A stretch of 64,000 nucleotides of DNA from Azolla caroliniana (GCA_043228905.1 JBHGNT010000011.1:8184001-8248000), one strand, 5' to 3'. Shown: positions 33,330 to 64,000, counted from the stretch's first letter. The notes: generated from the letters alone by a model not told the origin. Program-made: numbers and translations.

Positions 33330-34085
33330 CACGGTCGCGTTCACAAGTGGAAGAATCGCGCATAAATGGAAGGATAAGGAATATTTTGGTTGATTTTAGT
33401 ACTTTTTCAATGATTTTACAAAACACATTGATACCAGTATCATACATGTTCAAATATACTATGAAAAAGGTTAAAAATCTACTATTTTCGTGATTTAGAA
33501 ATAAATAAAAAAAGAGGAATTTCAAAAAGTTACATTCTCAATTTATATCACAAACTTTACAACCAATGTTATTCTATAAGAAATGATTTTTTAGAAATCA
33601 TAAGAATTCAAAAGACATGCTTTTATATTACTCGATTTGTTACAAGCGGAATGTAGTTACATAATAATAGCCAAAACTACATTCATGATCACTCCTTTAC
33701 GAAGAATCACTACTATAACTAATATACAATGACGATTCCTCCTCGTCATCCTCGGATGTACCAATCAGTGCATTATCTTTGTCATAAACCAAATGGTTTG
33801 ACTCTAGATTATATGTAGCAGATCTCGTTTGCCTTCGACTCGAGCCACCTCGTAGACCTGGTCAATTTTCTTTTATTATATCTATTGTTGACTTCATTAA
33901 TCGTCCGGCTTTTGTAAGCGTGAACTTGTACACGATGATATCCACATAAGAGATATCAAGGGTCGAGGTGTTACGAATGTTTCGCTTCCTCTTCCTACCT
34001 CCCCTTGTCGTTCGGCATTCAATCATCTCCAATGTATACTTACCCATAAAAGCATTTGCACTTCTAGTGTTTTACCAATTAACAT

Positions 34086-35034
34086 TGTCGTGAAGATTTT
34101 CAGCAACGGTATGAAAATTGCATGGAATGTACAAAATCGAGTGTGGTTCTTCACACACAATATGAAACAATAATAGGGAAGATACTATTTTATATTAGTT
34201 TAATATCTTGACCGGACAAACGACGACGGAACTGGAACCAGAACGGACGGACAACGATGGAACCGAAACCGGACTAGCGGACAACGACGGAACCGAAACC
34301 AGACTAGTGGACAGCGCCGAACCGGAACCGGGCGGGGACGGTGAACGAATTGGGACCGACACCGGCACCGGAACCGGATCGGATAGACCGGGTAGACAAA
34401 TCGACGATTTTGGTGTGAAACGAACAAAATCATCTCAACTAAACAATCTAGTAAGAATTTGTATACAAAGGGATGCAAGTAAGGCTTGAACCTTGCACGT
34501 CCAAGATAAGAGGGAGTAAACTTACCACTAAGCCAAGTCATTTCTCTAAAAATGATTTTTCTATCATTATACTTTTACATGTAAATTCTCATATTAGAGC
34601 TTGATTGAGTGACATGGTTATCATGCATCATATGTAATGCATGAGCACCAAATGGCAAACATGCATTCCATGCATTGTATGCATGTCTTGTACCCTCACA
34701 TGCATCATATGCATGGGGGCGTCTATAAAAGAGTGGATGAAAAAGATCAAAGGGAGCTATGTATGAATCAAGAATTTAATAAGAAGAAAAATCATTATCC
34801 AATTGATGATATATGTTGTTCTTCAAGTCTAAAGTCTAAAGTCAAGAGTTCAATCTTAATCTCTCTCTCCATTTCAATCGTTCTCAATCTTTGGAATCTT
34901 AATCTCAATGTCTCTTTCTCAATCTATCTTACATCCTTTCTCGCTAAAGCTAGTGCAAACTTCGAATCCTTTAGGTCCAGAACCCCGGCAGTTCCGCCTC
35001 ACGATCCGCACGTAGTGATGGGTTTTTCATGACA
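34086..35034 (+). repeat. 5' LTR of gypsy B
   Basis: Direct repeat of 40829-41752. Confidence 0.9.
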
Positions 35035-35078
35035 CATTTAAGTGGTGAACCTGACGTGAAAGAGGCAGTAGGAAGGAC

Positions 35079-38000
35079 ATGTCGAGGATCGACCGATACT
35101 TGAAGATGGCGTCCTCAAGCAATCAAGCACGAGAGTTCGAAAGGATGATGCTAATTGTCGAACAAATGACAAGATCTCGAGACAACGATGCGAGCGTGGA
35201 GAAGGGCATCGACCATGTCGTAGAGCTCGAGGGTCAATTTTATGGAAGGAAAATTACGAATTTCCTTGATGTATATAGAAGGGAGATGAATAAGAGGGAC
35301 GTGTCTGAAGCGCATCAAATCACAAGTTTCAAGAGAGTGGTCGCCAATAACATCCAAAGATGAGTCACCGAGCTTCAAGAAGGCAAGACAACATGATCCA
35401 AATTCGAGAAAGCGATATTAGCGGAGTTCGCGATGGAAGATTTGTTGAGGATGACTCGACATGCCTTGATGAAGTGGATAGAGAAGAAAAATAAGAATAT
35501 GAGCACCTCGAGAATGTACGATGAATTCGACCAGATGTTTAATCGTCTCCCCGCCACAGACCAAGTGTTCCTTGAGGAGGATAAGACTTTGTACTTCTTG
35601 AAAGTCATGGAGATGAAGGATAGACAAGAATTGGGGACTCTTCTTGAAGATGATACCCAAGCAAACAGGCTTGTGGCAGATTGGATTGCGGTGAAGCGGG
35701 TGTGCAATAGGCTCGACAAGCGTCGCGAGTGGGTTGATGACACCAACTTGGTAGGATAGACTGTGGAAAAAATGAAATAACCGAAAGTCGCTGAACCAGC
35801 CAAACAAAGCAGCCCGGAAGAAAAGAAGATTGATGATGACATCATCGAAGAATTGGTGAAGAAGTTCGAGATGGTCACACTAGCGAACATGAATCGTCGG
35901 GGCTTGAAAGGAAAAGAACCCTTTAGATGTGTGTGGTGCGATAGCTTGGACCACATGAGAAGGGAGTGCGCGAGCCTTCGAGAGGCCATCCGACAAAATA
36001 TAGTATACATGGATGACAACATGATCTGCTCGAGTGAAACTCGAAGACCCCTGCGGGTGAATTTCGGAAGAGGGGGAATGAAGAAATCTGTGGAAGATGC
36101 TGAGGCGATTCATGTGGATGCGATGCACTATGCGGCATCGACAGGAATTTAAGTAGGAAAAGATAAAAATGAAGCTGCTAGAACAAGAACAAAGTTTTGG
36201 TCTTCTGTTCTCGAGCGTAAGAAGAAGGGCAAAATTACATCAGACGATGTAGAGCTTGCGGACCGAAGTGTACAAAGTATCATTGGATGGTCGGATCTGG
36301 TAGATGACAACACCATACTCGCGGAACTGATGTGTGAGAACCACGAGGTGTTCATGGGTGAAAAGAGAAAAAGAATGGAAGGGCAAGATAGCCCATCAAA
36401 AAGACATAAAACAAGGCGCACGAAGAAGAAAGAAGATGTAGAAACGAGTCGAGCTTTACAAAATTTAGAGGAAGGAGACTCAAGCCGGAAAGGGGAGTCG
36501 AAGAAACGGTACGGCCCGTGAAGGTTGGTGTCGAAGTCCCCGCTCGGAAGACAAGAACTATGCCTACCTATAAACTAAAGTCGGACATAGAACAGACGAC
36601 AGACTTGAAGAAGATTCTCGAGGAACGTGTTCTTGATAGCCACGTCACCTTGTCCTTGAGGGAATTGCTCGGAATTACGAAGAAGGACTTCCATGATATG
36701 ATTGTGGACCTCATAAAGAGAAAAAGGAAACAATTGGACGAAGAAGAAGAGAAGCCACTAAAAGCAAAAGCGAATGCCATAACGATGGCAAGAGACGAAG
36801 TCGAGGAAGATATGGTGGACAACCACTATACTCGCCTCATTGGGTGCGAGCAACGACGAAGACGCAAGTAAAGTTGGGGGAAAGAGAAGAGACAGTCGTA
36901 GCGTTAATAGACCATGGGTCCAAAATTAACCTTATGTCGACTGAGGTCTAGAGGAAGGGAAGATGGCCCATAAATACGAATCATGGGTGGAAGATCCGTG
37001 CTGCTACGAAAGCTACCAGAGACTTGTATGGGGCATGTCATAACATCCCCATCATGATTGGTGATGTCGAGAGAGATCAACATTTTTTTGTTCAAGACTT
37101 GGCGTCCCATCCCATCATTCTTGGGCAACCATACATAACATCATCACGGATGGAAACCAAAGTGTTGGACAATGTTGCGGCGTTTGCTGGAGTAAGGAGT
37201 CTTGATGGGAAGAAGGTCGTACAATTCTTGATTGTACGTGCCAACCATGAAAGGATTCGGGATTGTCTCGGAGAAGATGCTTCGGATTTTTAGAGCAAAC
37301 TATTGAAGCATGAGGCACAAATAGTTTGAGCAATCACAAGTCCCCACAAGAAAGTAGAGCACGTGGATTGCAAGGAGAAGCAACATGTGTCACACTTAGT
37401 GGCGCATGTAAACTAGTACTACCCAACAAAAAGGATAAGTGTTGGATACAAGACTTCGAGAAGATGTTGAAAGAAGAAAACATAATAGAAGAAGAAGAAT
37501 TCGTGACTCATATTATGGAAGAAGCCTCATTTAACGACACCATCAGCGAAATTGAGGAAGTCGTGGACTTGAGCTATCTTCACGATCAACACGTGATTTC
37601 GGTTAACTCCGTCAACATGTACGCTATCATCGATGAATACCATCGAAGCATCTTGATGGACGAAGTTGAAGTCAACACAAAATATAAAACAGTGGATAGA
37701 AAGATGAAGCCAGTTGTGGTTCCGCTACCAAAAGATAGCTGGCAAAAGATGAAGGAAGTTGCTAATGATCCAAGCTTAAGGGATCCAAAGGAAATAGGTC
37801 ATGTCTTCACCGAAGAGATAAAAAGAAAGCTATGAGTTGGAAAGGACGATTTCCTCCTCCCTGAAGAGGAGTGAATGTTTCGCAACATGCCTGAGAGACA
37901 TGGGAAGGCTTTCACGTTTTTCCCACAAGAAATCAGATGCGCTGATCCAAGGGCGATAGAACCGATGGTGATCTTCATGGTGTCGCACGGGCCTTGGAAT

Positions 38001-40756
38001 TTGAAACCGATACCGGTTCCAAGAGCACACCTACCAAAGCTGATTGAGCTCTTAAAAGAAAAGGTGGATATGGGAATTTTGGAACCGTCGAATGCTCCCT
38101 ATTGTAATAGGTGGTTCACGGTGCCGAAGAAGAATGAATCATTGCGATTCATCCAAGATCTTGAACCTGTTAACAAGGTGACAATTCAGAATGCTGGAAT
38201 CGTTCCGAGTGGGGATGAATTTGCCAAAGTGTTTGCAGGTCGGTCTATCTACTCCATTGGCGATCTCTACTCTGCATACGATCAATTCTAGTTGGCAGTC
38301 GACAATCGTGATATTACAACTACGAAGACTCTGATCGGGCTTGTGCAGATGTGTACCTTTCCTCAAGGTGCAACGAACTTGGTGGATCATATAGTGAATG
38401 CCATGAACAAGGTCTTGAAGGATTGCATCCCGGGCATCACGATGCCATTCTTGGATGATATTCCGATAAAAGGGTGTTCGGATGAGGAGAAGGATGAATC
38501 TAAAGATAACGAAGGGCGTAGAAAGTTTGTTGTGGATCATATGAAAGATTGCGAAAAGGTGCTCCAAAGGCTCGAAGATGTGAATTGGACATTTTTGGGA
38601 GAAAAATCCGCATTCGGGCAACCAGAGATCTTGGTGGTAGGTCACTTATGTGGAGCATACGGCCGGAAGCCTTCACCTTCCAAGGTGAATATGATCCAAG
38701 ACATGGAAGAAGAATGCGTAAACCAAACGCAGGTTTGAAGATTCCTCGGAGCATGCACGTTTTATCATATCTGGATTCCGCACTACGCTCATGTCGACGA
38801 GCCATTCTATGCATTGCTAAAGAAAAGAATGAAGTTCGAATTGCGAGACGAGCATACAAACGTGATGCGGAGATTGAAGAAACTACTTCTTGAAGCCCCA
38901 ACACTAAGGAAGGCCGACTATACCGAAGGAAAGCTGATTTATGTGACTGTAGATACGAGCCCAACCGGAATTGGGTGGGTCATTAACCAAGAAGGAGAAG
39001 ATAATGTGCGGTATGCCATTCGGTCCGGAGCAAACTCTCTCAACGAAAACAACAAAGATACGCCCAAGTCAAGCGAGAACTTTGGGGTATTGTGTCTGTA
39101 GTGAAGATGGCCAAAGATAACCTGATCGGGTCGGAAGTGATAATTGAGACAGATTGTCTCGCAATTCTCGGGATGATCTCAGGATGTGCGACACCAGATC
39201 TAGCTATGCTAAGGTGGATCGCCTAGATTAAGTCTTTAAACCCAGAGATCTGCCACATTGCAGGGAAGAAGAACACCATGGCTGACATGTTGTCAAGGGC
39301 AAGATTTGAGAATGAAAGTGACATGGTTTCGGATGATGAAGACGTAACCCTCGACTTCTTCAAGATGCCCCGACTATCGGCGGAAGACAAGGACATGCTA
39401 ACCCTCCACTTCTTTAACGAGGACGAGTACGAAGGATAGTGGTTAGTGATCGGCATATTCTTAAGAACAATGTTAGCGGATGCTTCGTTGACGAAAGAGG
39501 AGGCTCTACGAATCCGGAAGAAAGCTTACCATACTTCCTGAAGGGAGGATTCCTCTGGCGACACCCAAAAAGAAGGAAAGAAATGCCACGTCGAGTGGTG
39601 GTGAAGAAAGAAGAGCAAGTGATGCTAATGACCAAATTCCACGAGAGTCCTTGGGTGGGTCATAGAGGAACATGGGCGACATTCGAAAAGTTGAAGGAAA
39701 AGTACTGGTGGCCAAGCATGTACAAAGATGTACTACATTTCGTGTCCACATGCGAAACTTGCCAAGTACATTCGAACATACGTCATCGTGATGAGTTACA
39801 ACCGACATACTTGCTCACCATACACTTCAAATGGATGGTGGATTTGGTCTCGATGCCAATGGGAGTGGGACAAATGAAGTACTTAGTATTGGCAAGAGAA
39901 GAGCTGACAAATCAAGTGGAAGGACGGGCCTTGGCAAATAAGACAATGTCACCTGTTTGCAAATTTCTACTCGAAGAGGTTGTCTGCCGATATAGATGTG
40001 TGGGAAAGATAGTGGCTGATCGAGGGGAGTTGGATGCACGTGAACCAATGGACCTCTTCGATCAACTAGGCGTGAAGCTCTCCCTCACGACTGCCTACAA
40101 TCCAGAAGCAAATGGGAAGATCGAGCGAGGGCATGCACCAATCGTCAAAGCCATCGTACGGGCATGCAATGGTCAAGTCGGGAACTGACCACAACTATTG
40201 CCCTATGCATTGTGGGCCGACAGAACTACACACAGTTCAGTGATAGGGTATATGCCAACAGAGCTTATGTATGGATAGAAACCGGTAATGCCCATCGAAA
40301 GGATGATCGCCTGAAGACTTATTAGCGGCACGGATAGGGCAACTTGAAAGAAGGCTTGAAGATTTAGAAAAAACGCGAAAGATGATGGAGGCAGGCTAAG
40401 TGAAGAACAAGATTCAGTTCGATAAGACACATCGACTGCATCCCAAGAAGATCGAAGAAGGAGAATGGGTATTTGTCTACGATAGCAGCCTGGACAATCA
40501 ACACAGAACAACAAGGAAGTTCGCAAGAAGATGGTTCGGACCGTATGTGGTGACAAGTGCCAACGACAATGCCACATACCATCTCGCAGAGCTAGACGGA
40601 TCAAGGATGGCCATACCCATTGCAGGAAAAAGAGTAAAGATTTTCAAGAAAAGACAAGACGAGGATCCTGCCCTCGATCACCTCGATGATGAAGATAGTA
40701 GGACTGAACCTATAGACTTGAGTTATGTGAACGAGGACATGGAGGAATCTGATTAA
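35079..40756 (+). pseudogene. Gypsy B gag-pol, many stops and frameshifts
   Basis: ORF fragments homologous to gypsy C: CVWCDSLDH zinc knuckle, MPFLDD, WFGPY. Confidence 0.9.
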
Positions 40757-40828
40757 TCCCCGTAGCTCAAATCTCACACTCTCTCTTCTTGGCACGTATC
40801 GGAGGACGTGCGGTTTGGTGGGGGTGGA

Positions 40829-41752
40829 TGTTGTGAAGATTTTCTGCAACGGTGTGAAAATTGCATGGAATGTCCAAATTCGAGTGTGGTTCTTCACACA
40901 CAATATGAAACAATAATAGTGAAGATACTATTTTATATTAGTTTAATATCTTGACCGAATGGATGACGACGGAACCAGAACTGGAACCGAAATCGAACGG
41001 ACGGCGACGGAACCGAAACCAGATTGGCGGATGGCATCGAACCGGAACCAGACAGGGACGGCAACCGAACTGGGACTGACACCGGCACCAGATAGACTGG
41101 ATCACCGGGTCAGATATGGTCTGGATGGACAAATCGATGATTTCAGTGTGAAACGAACAAAATCATCTAAAATAAAAAATCTAGTAAGAATTTGTATACA
41201 AAGGGATGAAAGTAAGGCTTGAACCTTGCACCTCCAAGTTAAGAGGGAGTAAACTTACCACTAAGCCAAGTCATTTCTCTAAAAGTAATTTTTCTCTCAT
41301 TATAGTTTTACATGTAAATTCTCATATTAGAGCTTGATTGAGTGACATGGTTATCATGCATCATATGTAATGCTTGAGCGCCAAATGGCAAACATGCATT
41401 CCATGCATTGTATGCATGTCTTGTACCCTCACATGCATCATATGCATGGGGGCATCTATAAAAGAATGGATGAAAAAGATCAAAGGGAGCTATGTATGAA
41501 TCAAGAATTTAATAAGAAGAAAAATCGTTATCCAATTGATGATATATATTGTTCTTCAAGTCTAAAGTGTAAAGTCAAGAGTTCAATCTTTCTCAATTTG
41601 TTTCAAAATTGGAATCTTAATCTCAATGTCTCTTTCTCAATCTATCTTACATCCTTTCTCGCTAAAGCTAGTGCAAACTTTGAATCCTTTAGGTCCAGAA
41701 CCCTGGCAGTTCTGCCTCACGATCCACACGTAGTGACGGATTTTTCACGACA
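40829..41752 (+). repeat. 3' LTR of gypsy B
   Basis: Direct repeat of 34086-35034. Confidence 0.9.
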
Positions 41753-44509
41753 ACGTTTATAGACTTGATCGTGTTTTCTATTTCATGCATTAGCACTTCT
41801 AGAATTTTACCAACCCAAAATTGGTGGCCATGTGAGTTCTCATCAGTCGGCGTTCCAATCAACATCCCCGCATCGAGCTCTTGCAAATTACCTTGCCATC
41901 TAGCTTCGACTGCTTTGGTCATCCTTGGTCCCACATAAATGTCTCTTTGTTGTGGATGGACCAAACTGTCATTAATTGCATTTGCTAGTTGCTCCGGAGT
42001 TTTATTTACACGATCATGTTGTAGCGACCATGTGAATGGCGTTTCCAAATTCCAATTATCACCAAATACACAATTGTCTATAATTCCTTTCTGATCACTA
42101 AAAAATACATCCCACCATGACGTGTTTGGTTGTGCGGCATATTTCTTTTCGGCCTCAATATGCTTTCTTTTTTCTTCTAAGGCTTGGAGCCATAATTGTT
42201 TTTGTTCCGATACCAAGTCACTATGCAATTGTCCTTTCTTCACAATTGGCATTTGTTTAGCTCCATGGACAATTGTACTCAGCATACAAAGTAATAATTG
42301 GCAACCACCTTCAGGTTCCCATGTTGTAGAAGATGAATATTGTTTAGCGTACAAAAGCATAGAACCACTTATTTCATTTTTCTTTGTCATAAAAATGTGA
42401 TTGAAGCTTATATTGTTTAACTAGGCAAGCACTTTAACATTCCCAACACCCCCATGTGATATATATCTCTTAAAGTCATATACCTCCTTCAAGTGTAACA
42501 CTTTTGGGCGTGGTGTATATGCATCACAAATGACATCAAATAGTTTTGGTAATGTGAAAGCATCATGCCAAAACAATTGCCTGGAGAGTGTGCTAAACAT
42601 CTGACCTATATGATCATGTGTGTGGCCAACCAAAAGAATATTGACTTTCACTTTTCTAAACAATCCTTGGTTGACCAACATACTTAGATAGCCAAACACT
42701 GTTGAATTTTTGTTCTGTATAGCAGTATTGTCCAATTGAATGTATAGAACAGAGGGGAACGGTTGGCCCCAAGACATCAAAACTTGGTGAATCACTTTAA
42801 CTATTAGGTTGTGGTCATTGTGAACATTGGGGTATGTAACGAAAACATGAGGTCCAACAGACCTATTATAAGCCAAGCATCCCAGCAAGTGCATTTGAAC
42901 AAGGCACTCATCATTGATGTCTTTGGGGAGCCTCAGCATATGCAGCAAGCACGTCTTCTTCTAGTTCATGCCATCTATCATTAAGCACCTGTATTGTTTC
43001 GGCCTCTTCAAACACTTCTCTCTATGATGCATCGCCTTCTTTCGTTCTAACGATTGTGCCTCACGATGCTCCTGTAGTAACTTCTTACTCATATCCTTTT
43101 CCATTGATGTCTTTGCACCTTTAGCCAAACTTTTAAGATTTGCACAAATGGAGCAATACCCCATGCGTACTTTACGTGGAATGGTAACATTTGAAAACCG
43201 AGCTCTCCATAATCTTGTGAATTGGCTATATGTGATAGATTTATTACGTGACCATATCTGATCGATAGACACCATAAACTTCCCGACATGTGTAATTATC
43301 AAAGAGGTGCATCTAACCTGTAGTGGGCATTACTTCACAATTTAACTGAAAATAACTTTTCATCCAACCAATAGCATGTCTTCCAATTGCACCTTTCATA
43401 CTTGGAACCTCTTTACAATTGAGCATCTGATCCCTGCTAAGTAGACGTTGTTGTACTCTATGTAGCCGCATGTTACTAACACATAACAAAATTTTGAATG
43501 CAACTCTACATACCTGTTGCACATGGAAGATATAATGCTCGAATGATACTTTGATCCCCGTACACTTGTCAAACACTAGTTGCATATGTGACCCGAGGTA
43601 AGTGTCTTGCTCATCACCAGTCATCGAAAAATAGTATCGCCTTAATTCTCACAACTTTGATTTTCCAATCATAGACATACAACCACGGGCACAACATATT
43701 TTGTTGACATCAAATTCAATCTGCGTATCTGATGTCACCAAGTTAAATATGGCCAGAGAAATTCTACGTGGGATTCTTCTAATATGCATAGGGCTTGCAG
43801 ATTTCTCTTCTTGCATAGAAGTTGGGGTAACCTTGTTACAATCCAATTCTTTGTTGTCACCATCGCCCATGATCTTCGATGTTTCATTGGCACTACCTTC
43901 ATTCTCCGTATGTTTATTAATATCATATTCTTCAATAGAAAACTCGTCACATGTGTCATTATTCACATGTGTTTTAGGTGAAGATGAGCTCAAACAATAC
44001 TCTTCGATAGAAATGGGTGAGTCTGTTGACAAACAATATTCTTTGATAGAAAATGGTGAGTCTGTCGACAGACAATACTTTTTAGTAGAAAACGAAGAGT
44101 CTGATGACAAACAAAATTCTTCAATCGAGAACGGTGAGTCTTCAGTCATGGCTTAAGGTCCACACAGAGCTCTTCAATTTATGTGCTTGGGCTAATATAA
44201 AAAACTGATAAACTCCTCTCTAAACAGAAGCTCCCTCAATATAATGTCTATATTATTTAATATTATATTAATAGAATAAATAAAGATATAATTTTTAATA
44301 TAATAATTTTATTCAACCTATTAATAATTACTTAAACTAGTCAGTATAAAGTTGAATCATTTATATTTTATACCTTATTAATCCTATAATATATAATTTA
44401 AATTAAATTTACTTTAGCCATCAAGTATAATATAATTACAATCATTACCAAGCCATATATATGTTGGTTTAAAGTTAAAATCATTGGTTAATTAATGGCA
44501 CCCATATTT

Positions 44510-50457: not shown

Positions 50458-50667
50458 AAGAACTCGATACAGCTTATCGAGTTCTTGTTTAAAGTTTGTG
50501 TTTTATATAGGAACTCGATACGGCATATCGAGTTCCTGTTTAAAGTTTGTGTTTTATATAAGAACTCGATACGCCGTATCAAATTCCTGTTTAAAGTTTG
50601 TGTTTTATACATGAACTCGATACGTCGTATCGAGTTATTGTATAAAACACAAATTTTAAACAGGAAT
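50458..50667. repeat. 51-bp tandem array of palindromes with a terminal inversion
   Basis: Units at 50458, 50509, 50560 and 50611, each with GAACTCGATA-N5-TATCGAGTT. 50583-50610 is inverted at 50640-50667. Confidence 0.9.
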
Positions 50668-51551
50668 ATTGTGTCTTTGGGGGAACAATTTGGTATATGT
50701 GTGAAAAGATACCAATTTTATGTCCAATTCAGACTTTTTAAGTGACATTTGCTACATTTTGTAACATCTAGTGGCATTACTTAAAAAGGTTTTATGACCT
50801 ATAATAGCTTAAAATAATAGAAAATAACCCACGAATTACCTTTATGATACCAAATTCAAGTCTATCGTATTAAAATTATCAACAATATGCGATATGGAAT
50901 CAATATAAGCCATACCTACCCTCCAATATGATATATATCCTTGTATAATTATTAAGATATATAATATTCGAAGTTGAATAGCCCTTACTAGATTTAAATT
51001 CACAATAAAGGTTTGTCATGTTCACAGAAAGTATGATTGATATCTAGAGTTTTTGTCTTGGTCTACTTATGTATATTTTAATATGCAACCTTAATCTAGG
51101 CAACCACCTAACTTATATTTTCGCACGTCGTTTCTTAAATAGGTCGTTTGAGAACTTGTCGGACCGACCTATGAAGAAAATAAAGCTCCAGATTTAGGGC
51201 TCTCCAATTGAGACCTAGAAACAAATAGTTCCTCAAAACATGAAGAGAGTAAAAAAGCTTCTCTTCAACGATCAGACAAAATCTCAACCATCCGATGATG
51301 TTAGCTAAAACAAAATGTTAGCTGCTACTAGTGGTGAGGACCTTCCTGACCGTGATCCAACGGACAAGGAATGGTGTATGCAGTACATCGACTCCAAGAA
51401 AAAAGTCATGTTGTATACAACAAAGAAGAAGGGCGACGATCAGCTTGAAAATGACACTGCATTTATGTATGGGCGTATTCTACGATTTTACTACGAAGAT
51501 TTAGATTCATCCAACATTCTTGTAATGATAGAGTGCTTGGAGGGGGTACGT

Positions 51552-52782
51552 TGTCGTGAAGATTTTCGGCAATAGTGTGAAAATCCCATAAAACGTACAA
51601 AATTGAGTATGAATCACATAATACAATAATTGTGAAGATAACATTTTAAATACATTTAATATCTAAGTACAAAATGATGGAAGTTTCGAATGCACTTTAT
51701 TACACGAGAAACAGACAACTAAATGTCAAGATATGAGGGTATAAAGTTTGTGAAAGGAAAAGAGAAAATTGTGAGATATCCCACATAGGCACGACAAATA
51801 CGGCTCTCATCATATATAAGGTAGAGCAAAAGATATTATCTTTGTGTCTATGTGTGGAGCATAGAGTGGAGGTGGGCTAGCTACTCGTAAAGGGTTTTGG
51901 CCAACCAAAACCGGACCGGCGATAGAGCCGGTGATCCGGCGCCAGTGAGACACCGACATCCGATGGCAATCCAGCGACGGCGAGGTGGCGGCATCCGATG
52001 ATGGAATCCGGCGGCAATCTGGTGACGGCGAGGTGACGTATCCGGCGACGACGAGGTGGCGGCATCCGGTGACGGCATCCGGCGCCAGTGAGACGACGGC
52101 ATCCGACGACATCCGGCTGCGGCACCAGTATCCGGTGGCGAGGCACCGGTAACAGACGGCATCCGGCGGCATCCGACGAACCGGCGTCCGGTGACTAGAT
52201 AAATAAATATATAAATATATATACATATATACATATAGACATATACAAGGAGGGCAAGTAAGATTTCGAACCTTGCACCTCCGAGTTAGGAGTCAATTAA
52301 CTTACCATTAAGCCATGCCATTTAGTTGAATTTATATTTCTATCATTGTACTTTTACGTGTAAATTCTCATACATGAGAGCTAAAATGAGTGACATGGTT
52401 ATCATGCACCACATGTAATACATAAGCGCCAAATGGCAAGCATGCATTTTATGCATGTCTTGTACCCTCACATGCATCATATGCATGAGAGCATCTATAA
52501 AAGAAGGAAGGGGGAGGAGGAAAAACGCGTTTTGTTTTGATGAAATTAAGAAGAAGAAATTCGTTATCAAATTGATCGTGTAACTTGTTTCTTAAATCTA
52601 AAGTTAAAAGTTCAATCAATCTCTCTCAATTGTGTAATCTCAACTTCTCTCTTTCCCAATCTATTTTAAGTACTTTCTCGCTAAAGCTTGCGCCAAAGCT
52701 TGTACCGACTTTGAATCCTTCCGGTCCAGAACCCCGGCGGTTCCGCCTCACGATCCGCGCGTAGTGACGGATCTTCACGACA
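51552..52782 (+). repeat. 5' LTR of gypsy C
   Basis: Direct repeat of 58605-59777; GC-rich GGCATCCGGC microrepeats at about 51915-52195. Confidence 0.92.
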
Positions 52783-52843
52783 TAATTAAGTGGTGAACCT
52801 GACGTGAAAGAGGCGGTAGAAAGGATCAAGTCAAGATTAATAC

Positions 52844-55047
52844 TTGGAGATGACGTCCTCAAGCAACCAAGCGGGAGAGCTCGAAAGGATGATGCTAATC
52901 GTCGAGCAAATGATGAGATCTCGGGACAACGACGCGAGCGTGGAGAAGGTTGTCGATCAAGTAGTAGAGCTCGAGGGCCAATTCTATGGAAGGAACGTTA
53001 CGAAGTTCCTTGATGCATATAGAAGGGAGATGAATCAGAGGGACGTGTCCGAGGCACGTCAAATCGCAAGCTTCAAGAGAGTTGTCACCAACAACATCCA
53101 AAGATGTGTCATCGAGCTTCAAGAAGGTAAGACAACATGGTCTGAGTTTGAGAAAACGACACTAGCGGAGTTTGTGACTGAAGACTCAACGAGGATGACT
53201 CGACATGCCCTGATGAAGTGGATAGAGAAGAAGAATAAGAAGATGAGCGTCTGGAGGGTGTACGACGAATTCGACCAAATGTTTAGTCGTCTCCCCAATA
53301 TGGACCAAGTGTTGCTTGAAGAGGACAAGACTTTGTACTTCTTGAAGGCCGTGGACATAAAGGATAGATGGGAGTTGGGGACTCTTCTCAAAGATGATAC
53401 CCAAGCAAATGGGTTCGTAGCGGACTGGATCGCGTTGAAGCGGTTATGCAATAGGCTCGACAAGCGTTGCCAATGGGTTGATGACACCGACTTGACGGGA
53501 TCGACTACCACGGAGAAAGCAAGACCGCCGAAAGTAGCTAAGCCGCCAAGACAAAGTAACGTGGAAGAAAAGAAGATTGATGACGACATCATTGAAGAGC
53601 TAGCGAAGAAGTTCGAGAAGGTCACCCTAGCCAACATGAATCATCGGGGCCCTAAAGGAAAAGAACCCTTTAGATGCGTGTGGTGCGATAGCATGGACCA
53701 CATGAGAAGGGATTGTGCGAGCCTTCGAGAGGCGATTCGACAAAATATCGTATACATAGAGGACAACATGATCTGCTCAAGCGAGACTAGAAAACCCCTA
53801 CGGGTGAATTTCGGAAGAGGAGGAATGAAGAAATCTATGGAGGATGCCAATGCGACTCATGTGGATGCGATGCACTATGTTGCGTCGGCCGGAATAAGAG
53901 TCGGGAAAGACAAGACTGAAGCTGCTAGAGCGGGAGCAAAGTTTTGGACTTCCGTTCTCGAATATGAGAAGAAGGGAAAAGTCACATCAAACGAGGTAGA
54001 GCTTGCGGACCGAAGTGTGCAAAGCATAACCGGGTGGTCGGATCCAGTGGACGACAACACCATACTCGCAGAGGTGATGTGCGACAACCACGACGTGTTC
54101 GTCAAAGAAAAGAGAAAGAGAATAGAAGAGCAAGGCCCATCAAAAAGACATGAAACAAGTAACGGGAAAAAGAAGGACGATGCGGAGATGAATCGACCTT
54201 TACAAACGGAGGAACGAGAATCAAGCCGAAAAGGGGGGCCGAGCATACGAGTTGAAGAAACGGTTCGGCCCGTGAAGGTTGGTGTCGAAGACCCCGCTCG
54301 GAGGACAAGGACTATACCTACCTATAAGCTAAGGTCGGACATAGAGCAGACGACGAACCTAAAGAAGATTCTCGAAGAACGAGTTCTTGATAGCCACATA
54401 ACTTTGTCCTTGAGGGAATTGCTTGGCATTACGAAGGAGTTCCATGACACGATCATGGACCTTGTAAAGAGAAAGAGACAACAATCGGACGTGGAAGAAG
54501 AGAAGCCACAAAAAGCAAAAACGAATGCCATAACGATGGCAAGAGACGAAATCGATGAAGATATGGTGGACAGCCACTACACTCGACCTCATTGGGCACG
54601 AGCGACAACGGAGACGCCGGTGAAGATCGGGGAGAAGAAAGAGACCGGGTGGTAGCCTTGATCGACCACGGCTCGGAGATTAACCTCATGTCAACCGATT
54701 TCTACAAAAAAGGAAGGTGGCCAATCAATACAAACCACGGATGGAAGATTCGCGCGGCAACAAAGTCTACGGAGGACTTGTACGGAGCTTGTCCCAATAT
54801 CAAAGTCACGATCGGGGGTGTAGAGATGGATCAACACTTCTTCGTACAAGAATCGGCGTCACATCCTGTCATCCTAGGGCAACCTTATATCACATCATCT
54901 CGGATGGAGACCAAAGTGTTCGATAATGAAGCAGCCTTCGCACGAATAAAGAGTCTTGACAACCAAAGTTTGGTCCAATTCCTAACGGTGCGAGCCAATC
55001 ATGAAAGGAATCGAGATAGTCTCGGAGGCGAATCCTCGGATTTTTAG
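52844..55047 (+). pseudogene. Gypsy C gag-protease (one frameshift near 54650)
   Basis: ORF 52844-54655 (CVWCDSMDHMRRDC) and ORF 54592-55047 (ALIDHGSEINLM...ILGQPY). Confidence 0.88.
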
Positions 55048-55112
55048 AGCAGACTATTGAAGCATGGGGCACAAATAGTCCAAGCAATCAAAAGACCCCA
55101 CAAGAAAGAAGA

Positions 55113-58100
55113 GTGCGTGGATTGCGAGGGGAAGCAACATGTGTCACACCTAGTGGCGCATGTAAACTAGTACTACCCGACAAGAAGCACAAGCACCGGA
55201 TACAAGAATTCGAGAAGATGCTGAAAGAAGAAAACATAATAGAAGAAGGAGAGTTCGTGACTCATATTATGGAAGAAGCCTCATTTAACGACACCATCGG
55301 TGAAATCGAGGACGTCGTGGACTTGAGCTATCTTCACAACCAACGCATGATTTCGGTTAACTCCGTCAACATGTACGCTATCATCGATGAATACCATCGT
55401 GGCATCTCGATGAAGGAAGCTGACATCAACACAAAATATAAAACGGTGGATAAGAAGATCAAGCCAGTTGCGGTTCCGCTACTAGAAGATAGCTGGCAAA
55501 AGATGAAGGAAGTCGCTAATGATGCAAGCTTAAGAGATCCGAAGAAGATAGGTCATGTCTTCACCAAAGAGACGAAGGGAAAACTATGAGTTGGAAAGGA
55601 GGATTTCCTTCTCCCTGAAGAGGAGCGAATGTTTCGCGATATGCTTGAGAGACATGGGAAGGATTTCGCATTCTTCCCACGAGAAATCGGATGCGCCGAC
55701 CCAAAGGTTATAGAGCCGATGGTGATCTTCACGGTGCCTCATGTGCCTTGGAATTTGAAACCGATACCAGTTCCGAGAGCACACCTTCCGAAGCTGATCG
55801 AGCTCTTAAAGGAGAAGGTGAGTATGGGAATTCTAGAACCGTCGAATGCTCCTTATTCCAATAGGTGGTTCACGGTGCCGAAGAAGAATGGATCATTGCG
55901 ATTCATCCAAGATCTTCAACCCGTCAACAAGGTGACAATTCGAAATGCCGGAATCGGTCTGAGCGTGGACGAATTTGCCGAAGCGTTTGCGGGCCGGTCC
56001 ATCTACTCCATTGGCGATCTCTACTCCGGATATGACCAATTCCAATTGGCGATCGACGGTCGGGACATTACAACCATGAGGACTCCGATCGGGCTTGTGC
56101 GGATGTGTACCTTACCCCAAGGCGCAACGAACTCGATGGCTCATATGGTGAATGCCATGAATAAAGTCTTGAAGGATTGCATCCCGGACATCACGATGCC
56201 ATTCTTGGATGATATTCCGATAAAAGGATGTTCGGATGAAGAGAAAGATGAATTGAAAGATAAGGAAGGTTGTAGAAAGTTCGTTGCGGATCATATGAAA
56301 GATTGCGAGAAGGTGCTTCAAAGGCTCGAAGATGCAAATTTGACATTTTCGGGAGAAAAATCCGCATTCGGGCAACCGGAGATCTTGGTGGTAGGTCACT
56401 TGTTTGGAGCATACGGCCGGAAGCCCTCGCCATCCAAAGTGAATGCAATCCAAGACATGAAAGAAGAATGCGAAAACCAAACGGAGGTTCAAAGGTTCCT
56501 TGGAGCGTGCGCGTTTTATCATATATGGATTCCTCACTACGCTCATGTCGCCGAACCGTTATATGGACTACTAAAGAAAAGAATGAAGTTCGAATGGCGA
56601 GACGAGCTCACAAATGCGATGCGAAGATTAAAGAAACTGCTTCTTGAAGCTCCGGCACTAAGGAAGGCCAACTATGCCGAAGGGAAATCAATTTATGTGA
56701 CCGTAGATACGAGCCCAACCAGAATCGGGTGGGTCATCAATCAAGAAGGTGAAGATAATGTGCAATATGCCGTCCGGTTCGGAGCAAAGGTTCTCAGTGA
56801 ACGGCAACAAAGATATGCCCAAGTCAAGCGGGAACTTTGGAGTATTGTGTCGGCAGTGAAGACGGACAAAGATTACCTGATCGGGTCAGAAGTGATAATA
56901 GAGACAGATTGTCTCCCAATTCTCGGAATGGTCTCGGGATGTGCGACCCCAGATCTTGCTATGCTAAGGTGGATCGCCTACATCAAGTCTTTAAACCCAG
57001 AGATCCGTCACATTGCAGGGAAGAAGAACGCCATGGCTGACATGCTGTCGAGGGCAAGATTTTCAAATGGAACTAACATGGTTTCAGAAGATGAAGATGT
57101 CACCCTCGACTTCTTCAAGATGGCTCCATTGTCGGCGGAAGACCAGGACACGCAAACCCTCCACGCCTTCAACAAGAACGAGTACGAAGGAGAGTGGTTA
57201 CTCATCGGTAGATTCCTAAGAACATTGACGACAGATCCTTCGTTGACAAAGGAGGAGTCCCTACGAATCCGAAAGAAAGCTTACCGATACTTCTTGAAGG
57301 GAGGATTCCTTTGGCGACATCCAAAAAGAAGGACAGGAATACCACGTCGAGTGGTCGTAAAGAAAGAAGAGCAAGAGACGCTGATGACCGAATTCCACGA
57401 GAGTGCTTGGGCAGGTCATAGAGGAACATGGGAGACATTCGAAAAGTTGAAGGAGAAGTACTGGTGGCCAACCATGTACAAAGATGTACTCCATTTCGTG
57501 TCCACATGCGAAACTTGCCAAATATATTCAAATACACGTCATCGTGATGAGTTACAGCCGACATACCCACTCACCATACACTTCAAATGGATGGTGGATT
57601 TGGTCTCAATGCCAATGGGAGTGGGACAAATGAAGTACTTAGCGCTGGCAAGGGAAGACTTAACAAATCAAGTGGAAGGACGAGCCTTGACAAATAAGAC
57701 GACTTCAACCGTTTGCAAATTTCTACTTGAAGAGGTTGTTTGCCGATATGGATGTGTAGGGAAGATAGTGGTCGACCGAGGGGAGTTGGACGCGCACGAA
57801 GCGACGGAGCTCTTCGAAAGACTAGGCATGAAGCTCTCCCTCACGACTGCCTACAATCCGGAAGCGAATGGGAAGATCGAGCGAGGGCATGGACCTATCG
57901 TTAAAGCCATCGTACGGGCATGCAACGGTCGAGTCGGGAATTGGCCACGACTATTACCCTATGCCTTGTGGGCCGATAGAACGACACATAGCTCGGTGAT
58001 AGGGTATATGCCGACGGAGCTTATGTATGGACAAAAGCCGATTATGCCCATCAAAAGGACGATCGCCTCATGGGTAGCGATACCGTGGGAGAACGAGATG

Positions 58101-58532
58101 AGCCGAGAAGAGTTATTAGCGGCGCGGATAAGGCAACTTGAAAGAAGACCTGAAGATTTAGAGAAATCGTGAAAGATGATGGAGGCAGCCCGAGTAAAGA
58201 ACAAAGTTCGGTTCGACAACACGCATCGACTTCGTCCCAAGAAGATTGAAGAAGGGGATTGGGTTTTGGTTTACGACAGCACCCTTGACAATCAACACAG
58301 TACAACAAGGAAGTTCGCAAGAAGATGGTTCCGGTCGTATGTGGTGACAAGTGCCAACGATAATGCCACATACCACCTTGCGGAACTAGACGGATCAAGG
58401 TTGGCCGTACCCATTGCGGGAAAAAGAGTAAAGATTTTCAAGAAAAGACAAGACAAGGATCCTGACCTCGATTACCTCGATGATGAACATAATAGGGCGG
58501 ATGTAAATGAAGACATGGAGGAATCTAATTGA
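55113..58532 (+). pseudogene. Gypsy C pol (RT, RNase H, integrase) with two in-frame stops
   Basis: ORFs 55113-55589, 55629-58172 and 58176-58532 lie in one frame; MPFLDD, VDTSP, HHCC zinc finger and DDE integrase. Confidence 0.92.
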
Positions 58533-58604
58533 TCGCCATAGCCGAAATCTCACTTTCTCCCTTCTTGGCACGTACCGGAGGACGTGCGGTTTGGTGGGGG
58601 TGGA

Positions 58605-59777
58605 TGTCGTGAAGATTTTCGGCAATAGTGTGAAAATCCCATAAAACGTACAAAATCGAGTATGAATCACATAATACAATAATTGTGAAGATAACATTTT
58701 AAATAAATTTAATATCTAAGTACAAAATGATGGAGGTTTCGAATGCACTTTATTACACGAGAAACGGACAACTAAATGTCAAGATATGAGGGTATAAAGT
58801 TTGTGAAAGGAAAAGAGAAAATTGTGAGATATCCCACATAGGCACGACAAATACGGCTCTCATCATATATAAGGTAGAGCAAAAGATATTATCTTTGTGT
58901 CTATGTGTGGAGCATAGAGTGGAGGTGGGCTAGCTACTCGTAAAGGGTTTCGGCCAACCAAAACCGGACTGGCGATGGAGCTGGTGATCTGGCGGCATCC
59001 GGCGCTGGTGAGACGACGGCATCCGACGGCAATCCGACAACGGCGAGGCACCGGTAACCGACGGCATCCGGCGCCGGTGAGACGACGGCATCCGGCGAGG
59101 CACCGGTAATCGACGACATCTGGCGGCGGCACCGGTATCTGGTGACGGCATCCGGCGGCGATGAGACGACGGCATCCGGCGAGGCACTGGTAACCGACGA
59201 ACCGGCGTCCGGTGACTAGATAAATAAATATATACATATACAAGGAGGGCAAGTAAGGATTCGAACCTTGCACCTCCGAGTTAGGAGTCAATTGGCTTAC
59301 CATTAAGCCACACCATTTAGTTAAATTTATATTTCTATCATTGTACTTTTACATGTAAATTCTCATACATGAGAGCTAAAATGAGTGACATGGTTATCAT
59401 ACACCACATGTAATACCTAAGCGCCAAATGGCAAGCATGCATTTTATGCATGTCTTGTACACTCACATGCATCATATGCATGAGAGCATCTATAAAAGAA
59501 GGAAGGGGGAGGAGAAAAAACACATTTTGTTTTGATGAAATTAAGAAGAAGAAATTCGTTATCAAATTGATCGTGTAACTTGTTTCTTAAATCTAAAGTT
59601 AAAAGTTCAATCAATCTCTCTCAATTGTGTAATCTCAACTTCTCTCTTTCCCAATCTATCTTAAGTACTTTCTCGCTAAAGCTTGCACCAAAGCTTGTAC
59701 CGACTTTTAATCCTTCCGGTCCAGAACCCCAGCGGTTCCGCCTCTCGATCCGCGCATAGTGACGGATCTTCACGACA
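58605..59777 (+). repeat. 3' LTR of gypsy C
   Basis: Direct repeat of 51552-52782. Confidence 0.92.
59247..59315 (-). other. tRNA-like module with Pol III A and B boxes inside the LTR (copies at 52252-52320, 34475-34540 and 41207-41273)
   Basis: Minus strand reads TGGCTTAATGGTAAGCC...GCAAGGTTCGAATCCTTAC. D-arm and T-arm stems can fold, but there is no convincing acceptor stem. Confidence 0.6.
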
Positions 59778-62040
59778 ACGTAAAGTGTACCTTTCTAAAG
59801 ATCAACTAGTAAAGGAATCTTGTGGGGATAAAATTTTAAAAAAGATTTACAAAGCTCACAAAACCTTATTGTCACCATGAGGCCTTATATACAAGGCGAT
59901 GTAACTCTAAGGGAGCCTTTTCCCTCCCCGTGAAGGCCCCAAAAAGGGCATCTAAAGTGCAATCCAGACCAGCAAAAAAGAAGACCACTAAAATGTCAGA
60001 CTCTGACTCATCAAGCTCAAACGAAGATGGGGACAGTAGGGGGACGTCGGGTGCTGAGCTAGCATCTGGTGTGTTGTCATCCGAGCAGAATAAGATACGG
60101 AGAGAGTTAATGCAGCATAAACTAGTGAGAAAAGGGCAAGTGTTTAATTTGCCTATAACACACATCCATCGGCCTCCAATAGATGAAAAAACTAGATGAA
60201 GACCACTTGAGATCAGAGAGCCACACCGAATGCATGTTCAGAATCTCAAGAAAAAAATGAAAATAAATTTGCATGCTACAGTTGTGCCTTTCATTGTGAT
60301 GGTAGATCCCGAAGAATTTTCCACAACTGAGGAGTTCAACGTAAGAAAGCATGATCAATACAATTACTTTGTAATTGGTGGATCACATTCGGCTGAGGCA
60401 TGCCGACAACTTGTTAGAGAGCACCCAATGACTTTCTTCTTCAAGTATGCCGAGTGCAAAATATACATGGGCCTCACAACTGAAGAGGCAAAGCTTTTGG
60501 CATGGAACCACAAGAACGACAATGACTATAGGCAAAAAATGTCATCTATTGAACGGATAAGGTTCTTCTACCATGAATACTTGGACGTCAAACAAAAGTT
60601 TGGTGTGAAGCTACACCCCGGCCTACGAAGTCAATGCCTTCATGAGGTCGGCATTGTGGTGGACGATAATGTTTAAGTCGGATGGTCTTCGGAAATATGA
60701 GTCCTGGTTTCAACTTGCCTTTAGAGATGGAGAAGTATGGGACCTACAAGATCAAATCTTGTCAATGTGGGAGAATAAGGAGGTCAAGGGTCGACGACAA
60801 AAGAAATGTAAGGTAGACCCTCAACTAGAATTAAAGTCACAAGCGGCCAAGAAAATTGATTTGACAATTGAAGAAGCGGTTGGCGACATGAAGCTGTCTC
60901 TGTGGAGAGTGATGCAAGGTATTAAGGACGAGCAACTTCTTGTGTTTGTTTTGTCAAGGGTTGTGGTGAAAGATTGAAGCCTTGAAGAAATGGTCACTGA
61001 GTTCAATAAGTAAGTCTTTCAAATAGTGATATTGAATTCAATATGATGCAATTGAAAGTTCTAATCTCGTTTTCTAATTTCACAGTCATAAGGTGTACAT
61101 GAAGATCCAAGAAGTTATGATGAAACAACTTGGATGTATAACTTGGGAACAAGTGATCGAGAATTATCCTGTAACGTCTTCATATAAGGTGTTATCCGAG
61201 TATTTTATTGCATTCAAGCATTGGTGTTTTTCATTAAGTTTTCCTCATATGTAGAGGTTGTGTAATAATACTTGATGTCTTATTGCTTCTATGAGAAACC
61301 ATGTTGTAGCAAGAAACAAGGAGAAGTTAAGGATATACACGATTTCCCGACATCCTTCCTTGCACATCTCGAGAGAGCCAGAAAAGAAAAGGATCGTCGC
61401 TTAGTCAAGGCATACAAAATTGAGGAAGATGGCTCCTCCAAAAAATTTATCCACAAAAAGGATATTACGAGAGATCTTTACTCCAACATGATTTGCGGTG
61501 AAGTCATTGACATGATACAAAAACTCCCAAAGAAGGAATATATGCTAATGATTGCTGATATTCCATACGGATTTCGAATGGCAGGGTCATCATACGATGA
61601 TGAACCGTTTAGGTTCAAATAGTTAGAGAAGATGGTCAAGGATTTTGCGGAGCTAACGACTGCATCCTTGTGGAGGATAGTTGTCTTTCATAGTATAGAC
61701 CAAGGGTACTCGGTAGCTCAAGCTTTGAGATCTCGTTGCCATGGCATCGAGAACCTTGCATGGTAAGGATTATTTATAAGTCTCATTCACTATATTGCCT
61801 TTCTTAAGATTGTTCAATCTATTCTTAACTCGATGCAATATTTGTTATAGGAATAAAAGCCAATGTTAATAGAGGGCCAACCTTTCGGTTCATAAATGCC
61901 ATTGAATACATTACGATTGGCTACTTCGATGAAATAAAGAAACAAAGAATCAAGGAGCATTCTAATGAAGTCGGAGGTTCAAATCTGCTCGTATATCCAG
62001 CAATGACAGGGAAATTGCGACATGTCACCACGACTGAACA

Positions 62041-62542
62041 AGGAAATTGGAGATATTGTCTAAACAAAGCATACATTCAGAATTGGGAGTATCACACTCT
62101 GAATGATAAGGAAGTAGTTGATGGAGAAACATGGCAGAATGTTGACTTCACATATGAGGGACTTGGAGATACTTTGAGTGATGTCTTGAACATTGGGGAT
62201 AACTTCGCTGTAAATGCTGAAAAAGGCAATTCAGAGGGTGCTGATTTCTATATATTGAAGTGCACGGTTAGTAAACAGTGTGCAAGGCAGAATATTGTAG
62301 ATACATGGGGAAATTATGTATCTGCCGGGACATTCTACATCGAAGGCATTTTTTATACAAAACTAGATGACTACGAATATGTGTACAGGCTGTTAGAAGA
62401 CAAACCAGCAGCGTACATGTACTCTCATTTGGTCAGGTGCATCAACGTCCCAATATCAGAATACAATAGTTGCTCAGGTTTATACACTGTTGGTGCTAAT
62501 GTGTATGAATGTATTTACAATAGTATGCCATGGAATTTGTAG
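62041..62542 (+). pseudogene. C-terminal part of a second, probably transposase-related protein fused in frame after a deletion
   Basis: GNWRYCLNKAYIQNWEY...IGDNFAVNAEKGNSEGADFYILKC...WGN...YSHLV resembles tails of plant DNA-transposon proteins and is unrelated to an MTase fold. Confidence 0.45.
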
Positions 62543-62982
62543 CTACAAGTAGCACTTACCATGTTCTCTTGTAAAACAAACATGTATTTTACGAAAATAG
62601 TTAAATAAATTCGTTTGAGAATCAATTTCTTGTATACAGTCTACTTTCTGTGCTTCTTTCTCAATAAAATCATGTCTTTTTTGTTAAGCTTTAAGTTATA
62701 AGTTATAGCGAAATAGTCATCAGTAGCTAATTAGCTGTACAAATGCAGTTAATTAGTTGTCAATAGCTAAATAGTCATCAATAGCATGAAATCAACAATC
62801 TGCAACATATTCCTCAAATTACACAGTAGATAAGTACAGTGGGAACAAGTAATTAAATTCTTCATTGAATAATGTCATCTCTTTACATATTTATAAATTA
62901 CCACTGGAAATGTCTACAAATCTCCTATAAACAGCTAAGCTCTTGCTAGTCAATGGAACGAGTCTACATATATTATCGCATA

Positions 62983-63984
62983 TCAAGCTTGGTATGGAGT
63001 CCACAACCATGCACCTAGTTGGCAGCTCATTGTTTGCACCAGGTACTGTTCAGGCATTTCCTCGGGCAGAATGAGACAACATCTCCGAATATTGAAGTAG
63101 TGCCGGAAATGTTCAGTATCCAAAATCAATGTATTGTCGGCATTACATTCAGGCCAAGTAGCCCAAAAATCAGAAAGTCTCTTGAATCTTGCAGCTTCCA
63201 TTTGCTCACAATTTTCTCGTGCCCATTGACCTTTAAAACGACTTCGCCATTTTGGGAAGAATCTTGCTAAACACTTCCACACATCTGATTTTGGCTTTTC
63301 ACTCCAAATAAACAAATCAAAGTATTGCACAGCCCACTCTAGAAACTAGTTCGCGTCCCTCCATGGCTGCATATATCTCACACTCATCAAGACTTTATCA
63401 AGCTCTAAGATCAAGGCTCTTCTTTCGACTTCTAGTGGTTTAGGTTTCCATTCCTGAAACTGAGCCGCTGTTACACCATTTTCTAGTAGGATATGATCAA
63501 TTTCAATCAGCTCAGGTTCGGCCGACACAACTGGCGTCCTTTCCCTCTTCAAACCCCTAGTCGACTGTGTTGGGCCTGGCTTCACATTCTGGTGCTCTTG
63601 TTTTCTCGACTTAGTTATCAATCCTTGGATTACCTCGGTGCATGTAGCTACTGATCTGCTCGATATCAGTCCACTAGTATCACATGCTGCATCTACCTGC
63701 AACACCAAGTCATCCGTGCAACATGTTGCATCTACCTGCAACACCAAGTCACCCATGCAACATGCTTGATCAACTTGTGTGACCAGATCACTTGTGTCAG
63801 TTGCTACATCTACTTTTAAGATGGGGCCCTTTAAACATGCCGCAACATCAATAGTATCCACATTGCCATTGGCCTTACGAGCAATAGAATCAAACCCTTT
63901 AGACTCTGCAACATCAGAAAACACCAACATATTCACACTCACAAAGTAACTAACAGTCTCACAAAACAACATCTTGAACATCAA
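62983..63984 (-). pseudogene. FCP1/NIF (HAD-like phosphatase) domain protein with 13-aa repeats, one in-frame stop
   Basis: ALILELDKVL (degenerate DxDxT), RDAN*FLEWAVQYFDLFIWS, KRLSDFWATWP...NTLILD. A probable splice acceptor at about 63906 suggests the gene starts beyond the window. Confidence 0.65.
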
Positions 63985-64000
63985 TGAGTTTCAGTCATAG

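Follow-up and report, generated by a model that had tools for sequence, protein, structure and literature searches.

A probable two-gene DNA transposon with a ParB-methyltransferase gene, preserved as a dead copy in Azolla caroliniana

Sola transposons are described, in the available part of one report, as elements of 2-9 kb with a DDD (three-aspartate) transposase that make a 4-bp target duplication and are present in moss (PMC10741241). Sola1-1_Ec32 of the brown alga Ectocarpus is much larger: it measures 21.5 kb, has AACCG-CGGTT termini and a 4-bp duplication, finds its best match in Sola1-1_PPa, and carries on the opposite strand a gene for a protein with ParB and N4-cytosine/N6-adenine (N4C/N6A) methyltransferase (MTase) domains; the accessible text also cites comparable proteins of green and red algae (PMC12477816). 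The Plavaka elements of the red alga Bostrychia, according to the portion of the preprint at hand, have accessory genes for ParB and methylase proteins, and inverted-repeat arrays lie beside them (bioRxiv 2025.02.11.637652). Here, a stretch of 64,000 nucleotides from Azolla caroliniana (GCA_043228905.1, JBHGNT010000011.1:8184001-8248000) is analyzed, which is called the window. Taken as a whole, its positions 33328-62041 are likely best explained as a dead copy of a DNA transposon with two genes and terminal inverted repeats (TIRs), and the architecture of that transposon, with a ParB-MTase gene as cargo, is read with high confidence. The element is a land-plant representative of a transposon kind already known from algae (Ectocarpus). 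What is likely new here is an array of 17-bp palindromes between both genes, as a candidate parS-like operator.

Likened by description, the family resembles Sola1-1_Ec32 in its opposite-strand ParB-MTase fusion gene, its AAC...GTT termini and its 4-bp duplication, but it differs in size (7.6-9 kb instead of 21.5 kb), in its TIRs (30-37 bp instead of imperfect ones of 282 bp), in its hosts (land plants instead of a brown alga) and in holding two genes only; a palindrome array is not mentioned for Sola1-1_Ec32 in the text available (PMC12477816). An earlier note on this DNA had regarded Sola elements as transposase-only, a view that does not fit the opposite-strand gene of Sola1-1_Ec32 (PMC12477816). 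Sola1-1_PPa of Physcomitrella is likewise a land-plant Sola1 with a DDD transposase and a 4-bp duplication, but no MTase cargo is mentioned for it in the accessible parts of the sources, though cargo is possible (PMC12477816, PMC10741241, PMC9033089). The PAG2 and PAG3 genes of the Bostrychia Plavaka elements offer a second parallel, i.e., a ParB-like protein, an N6-adenine methylase and arrays beside the ParB gene, for which self-binding was proposed; these elements differ, as far as the available text goes, in their EnSpm-type transposase, in the fusion of ParB to a 2-oxoglutarate (2OG) oxygenase and of the methylase to a SET domain, and in their size of 17-19 kb (bioRxiv 2025.02.11.637652). 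No such element was found described in land plants in the literature searched, but Bao et al. 2009, Iyer et al. 2011, Repbase entries and bioRxiv supplements may record it.

When the three nested long terminal repeat (LTR) retrotransposons, delimited by self-comparison and inspection of their ends, are subtracted, 7,545 bp of the element and 1,959 bp beyond it are left (9,504 bp for 33328-64000), which agrees with the ~9.5 kb of the earlier note. That note had placed the start at 33330, where an old copia reverse transcriptase (RT) gene is cut. The cut is exact, as the match to the RT fragment begins at 33327, directly beside the element end, but the terminus itself (AACAC) is at 33328. This is a true terminus, as it recurs at 15 loci, next to 14 distinct flanking sequences. 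The four bases at 33324-33327 are predicted to be the target duplication of the element, from the 4-bp duplication of locus L023 (see below). A fixed target of TTAA type was considered and discarded, since the AA is already part of the TIR and the flanks differ between loci. The TIR sequence was found once in the window and in none of 100 shuffles, and no right terminus lies within the window.

The other end is known from relatives. In locus L012, the reverse complement of the TIR lies past the MTase, and the MTase-side end is reached ~0.9 kb after the MTase stop. TIRs of 30-37 bp were seen in L012/L013 and in four complete loci that have both of them, i.e., L019 (7,805 bp), L023 (7,724 bp), L030 (7,594 bp) and L040 (6,044 bp). 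The first three are intact at 7.6-7.8 kb, and L040 is internally deleted (6.0 kb). All four end within ~1.2 kb of the MTase stop, and they hold the transposase and ParB-MTase genes and none else of the window's gene set. L023 interrupts the pol gene of a gypsy element and is flanked by a 4-bp target duplication: when the element is excised in silico together with 4 bp, the gypsy frame is restored and matches an independent gypsy without gaps, neither of which is obtained with a 1-bp duplication. The full window element is predicted to have been ~9 kb, from its own 7,545 bp and the missing 3' part as found in L012. Some copies of the family were also found inside the transposase gene of another copy, or as duplicated ends (L022 at 4040, L077 at 93, L025 at 6831-7160), and just left of the element in L019 stands an unexplained 3.7-kb block with many long inverted repeats (630-4371).

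A scan for the family yielded 78 loci, 50 of which contain the 5' part of the transposase gene. A head-to-head ParB gene is reached in 16 of these 50, and most of the others simply end. Where at least 2.5 kb of upstream DNA was available, the pair was present in 13 of 15 loci, the two misses being decayed copies with 37-40% identity; the ParB-MTase gene is fixed in the family, as befits the Sola-like transposon with cargo that the earlier note had envisaged. In pairwise comparisons of 13 loci, transposase identity and ParB identity are correlated (rho 0.56, 1 in 5000 permutations), which only shows that the genes travel together, as kin are not independent. The ParB and MTase profiles gave no match on 17 distant loci, which are decayed and mostly without upstream DNA.

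Segment by segment, the transposase gene of the window shows 76-88% identity to an open reading frame of 932 amino acids that is intact and intronless, and its Pfam match is DUF7869 (E 2e-43). The catalytic aspartates are kept in the aligned rows of the family (D395 in 29/30, D476 and D518 in 33/33), which bears out the DDD transposase on the minus strand that had been noticed earlier. The window copy itself is dead: it has six stops and one frameshift over the whole gene, and its third catalytic Asp is replaced by Gly. In the structural model, the core has an RNase H-like topology with a predicted local distance difference test score (pLDDT) of ~80-90, and the N-terminal domains are helical. 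The weak Foldseek rows, for the most part RNase H-fold proteins, comprise TnsB, PIWI, UvrC, RNase H, integrases and Mos1, and acetyl-CoA carboxylases, which are unrelated, also occur among them. The nearest named relative is from the fern Ceratopteris (65%), and neither the transposase nor the ParB alignment nor the FCP1-like protein discussed below had relatives in a scan of viral contigs. As a separate observation, a C-terminal beta-barrel (P0002 760-880, encoded at 33860-34085 and 41753-41900) gave a weak Foldseek row to DNMT1 BAH1 (E 0.036). Distant, decayed relatives of the transposase with 34-54% identity (L046-L051, L053, L057, L060, L065 and L067) lie amid retroelement debris. A scan of genome contigs gave a single match, L079 (30 residues, E 2e-4), which was dismissed as chance.

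The cargo gene lies head-to-head with the transposase gene across a divergent intergenic region, as the earlier note had it. It consists of four exons that are spliced; in the window, it is split by gypsy C and truncated at 62039-62044, and its S-adenosylmethionine-binding motif is gone through the truncation. The model of exon 1 (pLDDT 70 overall, predicted template modeling score 0.47) contains a ParB/sulfiredoxin domain plus helices, and its ten best Foldseek rows are all ParB/Noc (E 6e-6 to 3e-4). With VIA, PadC (Z 10.1, rmsd 3.1, 101 aligned), KorB (Z 8.8, rmsd 12.5, 166 aligned) and other ParB-fold proteins were top-ranked. Pfam gave no ParB match for P0040 or P0058, only a weak one to DUF6551, and an atlas search pointed to DUF3723 clusters (score 0.96), which serves as a lead only. 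In complete relatives, the MTase is recognized by PF01555 (E 1e-10), above cut-off in all three loci tested (L012, L019 and L030); the ParB-MTase gene on the plus strand had thus been identified rightly. Seven loci have both DIPY and, after it, DLFSGTG intact, i.e., motif IV before motif I, which is the beta-class order. The best solved relatives of the MTase profile are M.MboIIA, DpnA and CcrM (E 8e-14 to 6e-12), and N4-cytosine enzymes match more weakly (7e-7 and 9e-4). The cargo MTase is likely of the beta-class N6A/N4C type, with N6-adenine as the predicted base and N4-cytosine less likely. In its fold, the protein is like bacterial ParB, Noc and KorB, which act at parS-type palindromes, and in its motif order like M.MboIIA, DpnA and CcrM; it is unlike them in being a fused, intron-containing, eukaryotic protein in which the CTPase arginine is replaced and DPPY reads DIPY. 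The nearest named relative of the ParB region is again from Ceratopteris (75%). A search of 1.84 billion representatives yielded 175 matches to the cargo; among 15 that were looked up, Adiantum (6), Ginkgo (2) and Riccia (2) were named, and these relatives are known as proteins only. The N-terminal domain of the cargo (P0039 62-184, ~51330-51551 and 59778-59930) was modeled as a confident beta-rich fold with weak PH-like/SANTA matches (Z at most 6.1) and could be a chromatin-reading module.

The palindromes of the intergenic region (TCGATRC-N3-GYATCGA) are predicted, with somewhat better than even confidence, to be the binding site of the ParB-MTase. The pattern is present in the intergenic stretch of all 15 loci examined, in subfamilies down to 52% transposase identity, with 1 to 15 copies per locus; the dyad of 17 bp is kept across subfamilies, the spacers change, and the palindrome does not resemble the TIR sequence. 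It has 93 matches in 18.4 kb of intergenic DNA versus 6 in 96.8 kb elsewhere, an enrichment that is partly circular as the pattern was derived from the same sequences.

Besides this circularity, several points weigh against the reading given here. Only one palindrome copy is present in 4 of the 15 loci. With the transposase model, Foldseek finds nothing at E < 0.001, its best row being TnsB (E 2.4e-3), and Sola1 membership, though probable, was judged by described features rather than by alignment to curated Sola1 transposases. Motif IV of the MTase reads DIPY, not DPPY. The CTPase motif of ParB, GxxR, provides an arginine patch for CTP binding, and Ser or Thr takes the place of its arginine in the family (GGSHS, GGTHS or GGNHT); clamp or CTPase activity may be absent, and the cargo protein, judged by this motif, would work like ParB at most and is not classed as a CTPase. 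The target duplication was found in only one of the four complete copies; the flanks of the other three are unmatched, perhaps because their contigs merge many copies. Finally, no complete copy was recovered of the window's own subfamily (87-100% identity), and we infer the right end of its element from L012, a relative with 69% identity.

The element could have worked as follows. The DDD transposase would cut and paste the unit at its AACAC ends. The ParB/helical region would recognize the 17-bp palindromes as ParB does parS, and the fused enzyme would write N6-adenine or, less likely, N4-cytosine marks at the array, in cis, near the divergent promoters. Such marks would oppose host silencing of the divergent promoter by 5-methylcytosine (5mC) and keep the element expressible. 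Anti-silencing as the purpose of the ParB-MTase is a tentative prediction from sequence, which we consider slightly more prone to fail than to hold. The VANDAL elements are of Mutator type, and their VANC protein induces 5mC loss and has no ParB or methyltransferase domain. The proposed mechanism is like that of eudicot VANDAL/VANC in that an accessory protein targets motif arrays in its own element (cited in the accessible text of bioRxiv 2025.02.11.637652).

The main rival to anti-silencing is autoregulation at the same palindrome site. The ParB-MTase would then be a repressor or loop-former on the array, and methylation would tune transposase expression or end usage, not host silencing. Dam control of the ends of bacterial insertion sequences is a precedent. 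The position of the array, flanked by two divergent promoters, and its 51-bp period in the window and several relatives, which corresponds to about five helical turns, would suit such a role, and a repressor, KorB, is among the best fold matches. On the other hand, a catalytic MTase kept intact across subfamilies that are 52-70% identical in the transposase exceeds what a repressor needs, and the authors of the algal precedents, in the available parts of their reports, read them as self-modifying accessory proteins (PMC12477816; bioRxiv 2025.02.11.637652). Neither argument is decisive, and autoregulation is a serious, if less probable, explanation.

It is rather unlikely that the palindromes are bound by the transposase as an internal enhancer, or are mere expanding tandem repeats, while the ParB-MTase acts on host chromatin or RNA. 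Their varying copy number would suit this, and the helical N-terminal transposase domains, as modeled, could bind DNA, but the conservation of the dyad and not of the spacer, as well as its dissimilarity to the TIR, argue otherwise. Related enzymes have been repeatedly recruited to RNA in eukaryotes, according to the accessible part of one source (PMC4738411), but in red-algal Plavaka, as far as the preprint text at hand describes it, inverted-repeat arrays adjoin an unrelated ParB accessory gene (bioRxiv 2025.02.11.637652). Equally doubtful is a separate DUF7869 DDD lineage that is not Sola1 and has convergent features. Pfam gives DUF7869 only, and the likeness to Sola1 is one of described features; however, the DDD triad, the 4-bp duplication and the size fit Sola as described in the text available (PMC10741241), and the AAC...GTT termini, the 4-bp duplication and the opposite-strand ParB-MTase match Sola1-1_Ec32, again in the available text (PMC12477816).

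The earlier note had favored one giant transposon that unites the transposase, the ParB-MTase, a tail resembling a transposase and the FCP1-like gene, which is highly improbable. In its favor, the parts are adjacent, each of them is high-copy in the same set of four runs, their stop densities are of the same order, and the recovered copies do not show where the subfamily of the window ends on the right. Against it, the four complete relatives (6.0-7.8 kb) end past the MTase stop with two genes and without an FCP1-like gene, that gene has no match at E 0.05 in any of the 78 loci, the one match of the tail lies outside the TIR of its locus, and both sides of the joint at 62039-62044 continue otherwise elsewhere. 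Co-occurrence with the transposase, which that note had proposed as a check, holds for the ParB-MTase but not for the FCP1-like gene, which the TIRs of the complete copies exclude.

The similarity of the window to L012 ends at 62037. Contigs of the four runs aligned to 61970-62110 gave 252 records, and none of the 32 pieces listed bridges the joint. In all four runs, the left side continues into a normal MTase exon (GLVNPYQKP), and the right side is preceded by the Cys-rich motif of another gene. A microhomology of three to four bases between the two parent sequences at the joint suggests that a deletion produced it. Summed depths across the joint differ in opposite directions between runs and were not used as evidence, as contig depth cannot rank genes. 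On the tail side, there are no differences over 59-69 bases to high-depth contigs, compared with 5-8 over 57-67 bases on the MTase side.

The tail matches a single locus, L019, at 2.6 kb outside the TIR (at 12446), and has no Pfam or atlas match. It is likely the C-terminus of another transposase, of a second element, and not cargo; this we take from a resemblance of its Cys motif to Sola2-type C-termini. The earlier note was right, with this probability, about its nature but not about its membership in the element, and right about the FCP1/NIF domain but not about the gene being cargo. The FCP1-like gene is very probably separate from the ParB-MTase element. The catalytic motif of FCP1/SCP C-terminal domain phosphatases is DxDx(T/V); in the window and in all four intact homologs, the motif reads ELDKV, in which the first catalytic Asp is gone, and the protein is likely a pseudophosphatase. 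One FCP1-like protein compared with L012 gave no match. The parts had been described as similarly decayed, and the stop and frameshift densities are indeed of the same order, with no clear difference in stops between the tail/FCP1-like stretch and the first element; however, the FCP1-like protein shares 94% identity with the intact relative closest to it, and the transposase and ParB share 83-84% with theirs. The tail and the FCP1-like gene, both high-copy, likely belong to a second element and likely form a single one. Against the latter, their linkage consists of adjacency and similar closeness to high-depth contigs, and no contig spans both. Should the second element sit inside the first one, the latter's right end may still be found past 64000. 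As a side observation, this second high-copy type (62042-64000; L019 12447-15592) has a transposase-like, Cys-rich C-terminus convergent with a low-complexity gene, which has a NIF domain without the catalytic Asp in the window and no NIF match in L019. Members of the FCP1-like cluster are found on many contigs of 9-10 kb.

In the history we propose, the element landed in the copia RT gene, three LTR elements inserted into it, and a later deletion with microhomology joined the MTase gene to the terminal part of another high-copy element, which is apparently the younger one. The features are listed in Table 1. Plant LTR elements usually make 5-bp target duplications. The 4-bp duplications of gypsy B (34082-34085/41753-41756) and gypsy C (51548-51551/59778-59781) are at ACGT-like sites, possibly a target preference of this gypsy family. 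The copia at 44510-49785 is a very recent insertion with identical LTRs of 580 bp, but its pol carries both a frameshift (near 46400) and a stop (at 47240).

Table 1. Features of the element, its nested insertions and its flanks in the window
Feature	Position	Strand	Remarks
Old copia RT fragment, interrupted by the insertion (target site)	33106-33327	-	tblastn 64% identity to young copia RT
Transposase-side TIR, ~35 bp	33328-33362	+	5'-AACAC; common to 15 loci
Transposase C-terminal part, residues ~805-930	33697-34085	-	tblastn 84-87% to P0001/P0002
Gypsy B, nested, not part of element	34086-41752	+	LTRs 7.4% diverged; 4-bp duplication with one mismatch
DUF7869 DDD transposase pseudogene, residues 1-805	41753-44149	-	rejoins 33697-34085 across gypsy B
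Divergent intergenic region	44150-44509 + 49786-51155		split by young copia
Copia, young, in intergenic region	44510-49785		LTRs identical (0.0%); 5-bp duplication
Four 17-bp palindromes, 51-bp period	50458-50636 (starts 50464, 50515, 50566, 50617)		predicted parS-like operator
ParB-MTase exon 1, 5' part	51156-51551	+	65% to P0039 residues 1-132
Gypsy C, nested, not part of element	51552-59777	+	LTRs 4.7% diverged; 4-bp duplication
ParB-MTase exon 1, 3' part: ParB/sulfiredoxin-fold domain and helical region	59778-61009	+	85-88% to P0039; stops, frameshifts
ParB-MTase exons 2-4, MTase N-half, motif IV DIPY	~61086-61224, 61296-61762, 61851-62041	+	alignment to L012
Deletion joint (suggested), element to second sequence family	62039-62044		3-4 bp microhomology
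Tail: C-terminal 166 codons of different gene	62042-62542	+	53% to L019 15054-15548
FCP1/NIF-like gene, convergent with tail	62891-64000	-	NIF E 1.6e-6

From algae, it has been proposed that transposon ParB-methyltransferases bind and mark their own element, and the literature consulted reports no test of it. The present family makes this idea of self-methylation directly testable, with its intact copies of 7.6-7.8 kb, its co-diverging subfamilies, its candidate 17-bp site and its relatives in Ceratopteris, a model fern. A prokaryote-type amino-methyltransferase in a seed-free plant has a parallel in MpDN4MT1 of Marchantia, which differs in being a host gene with a TSPPY motif that makes N4-methylcytosine (4mC), and for which the available text mentions no ParB or transposon link (bioRxiv 2021.02.12.428880). 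In its boldest form, which is speculative and unlikely to hold in full, the proposal is that parS-like targeting and an adenine MTase are joined on a high-copy Sola1 of liverworts, ferns and gymnosperms, that N6-methyladenine (6mA) on its own promoter array evades 5mC, and that the element is a land-plant counterpart of VANC of the writer type and a source of non-5mC marks in fern genomes. If active, the cargo would exemplify a plant transposon that writes a DNA mark other than 5mC at targeted sequences, and it would bear on the origin of 6mA and 4mC in seed-free plants.

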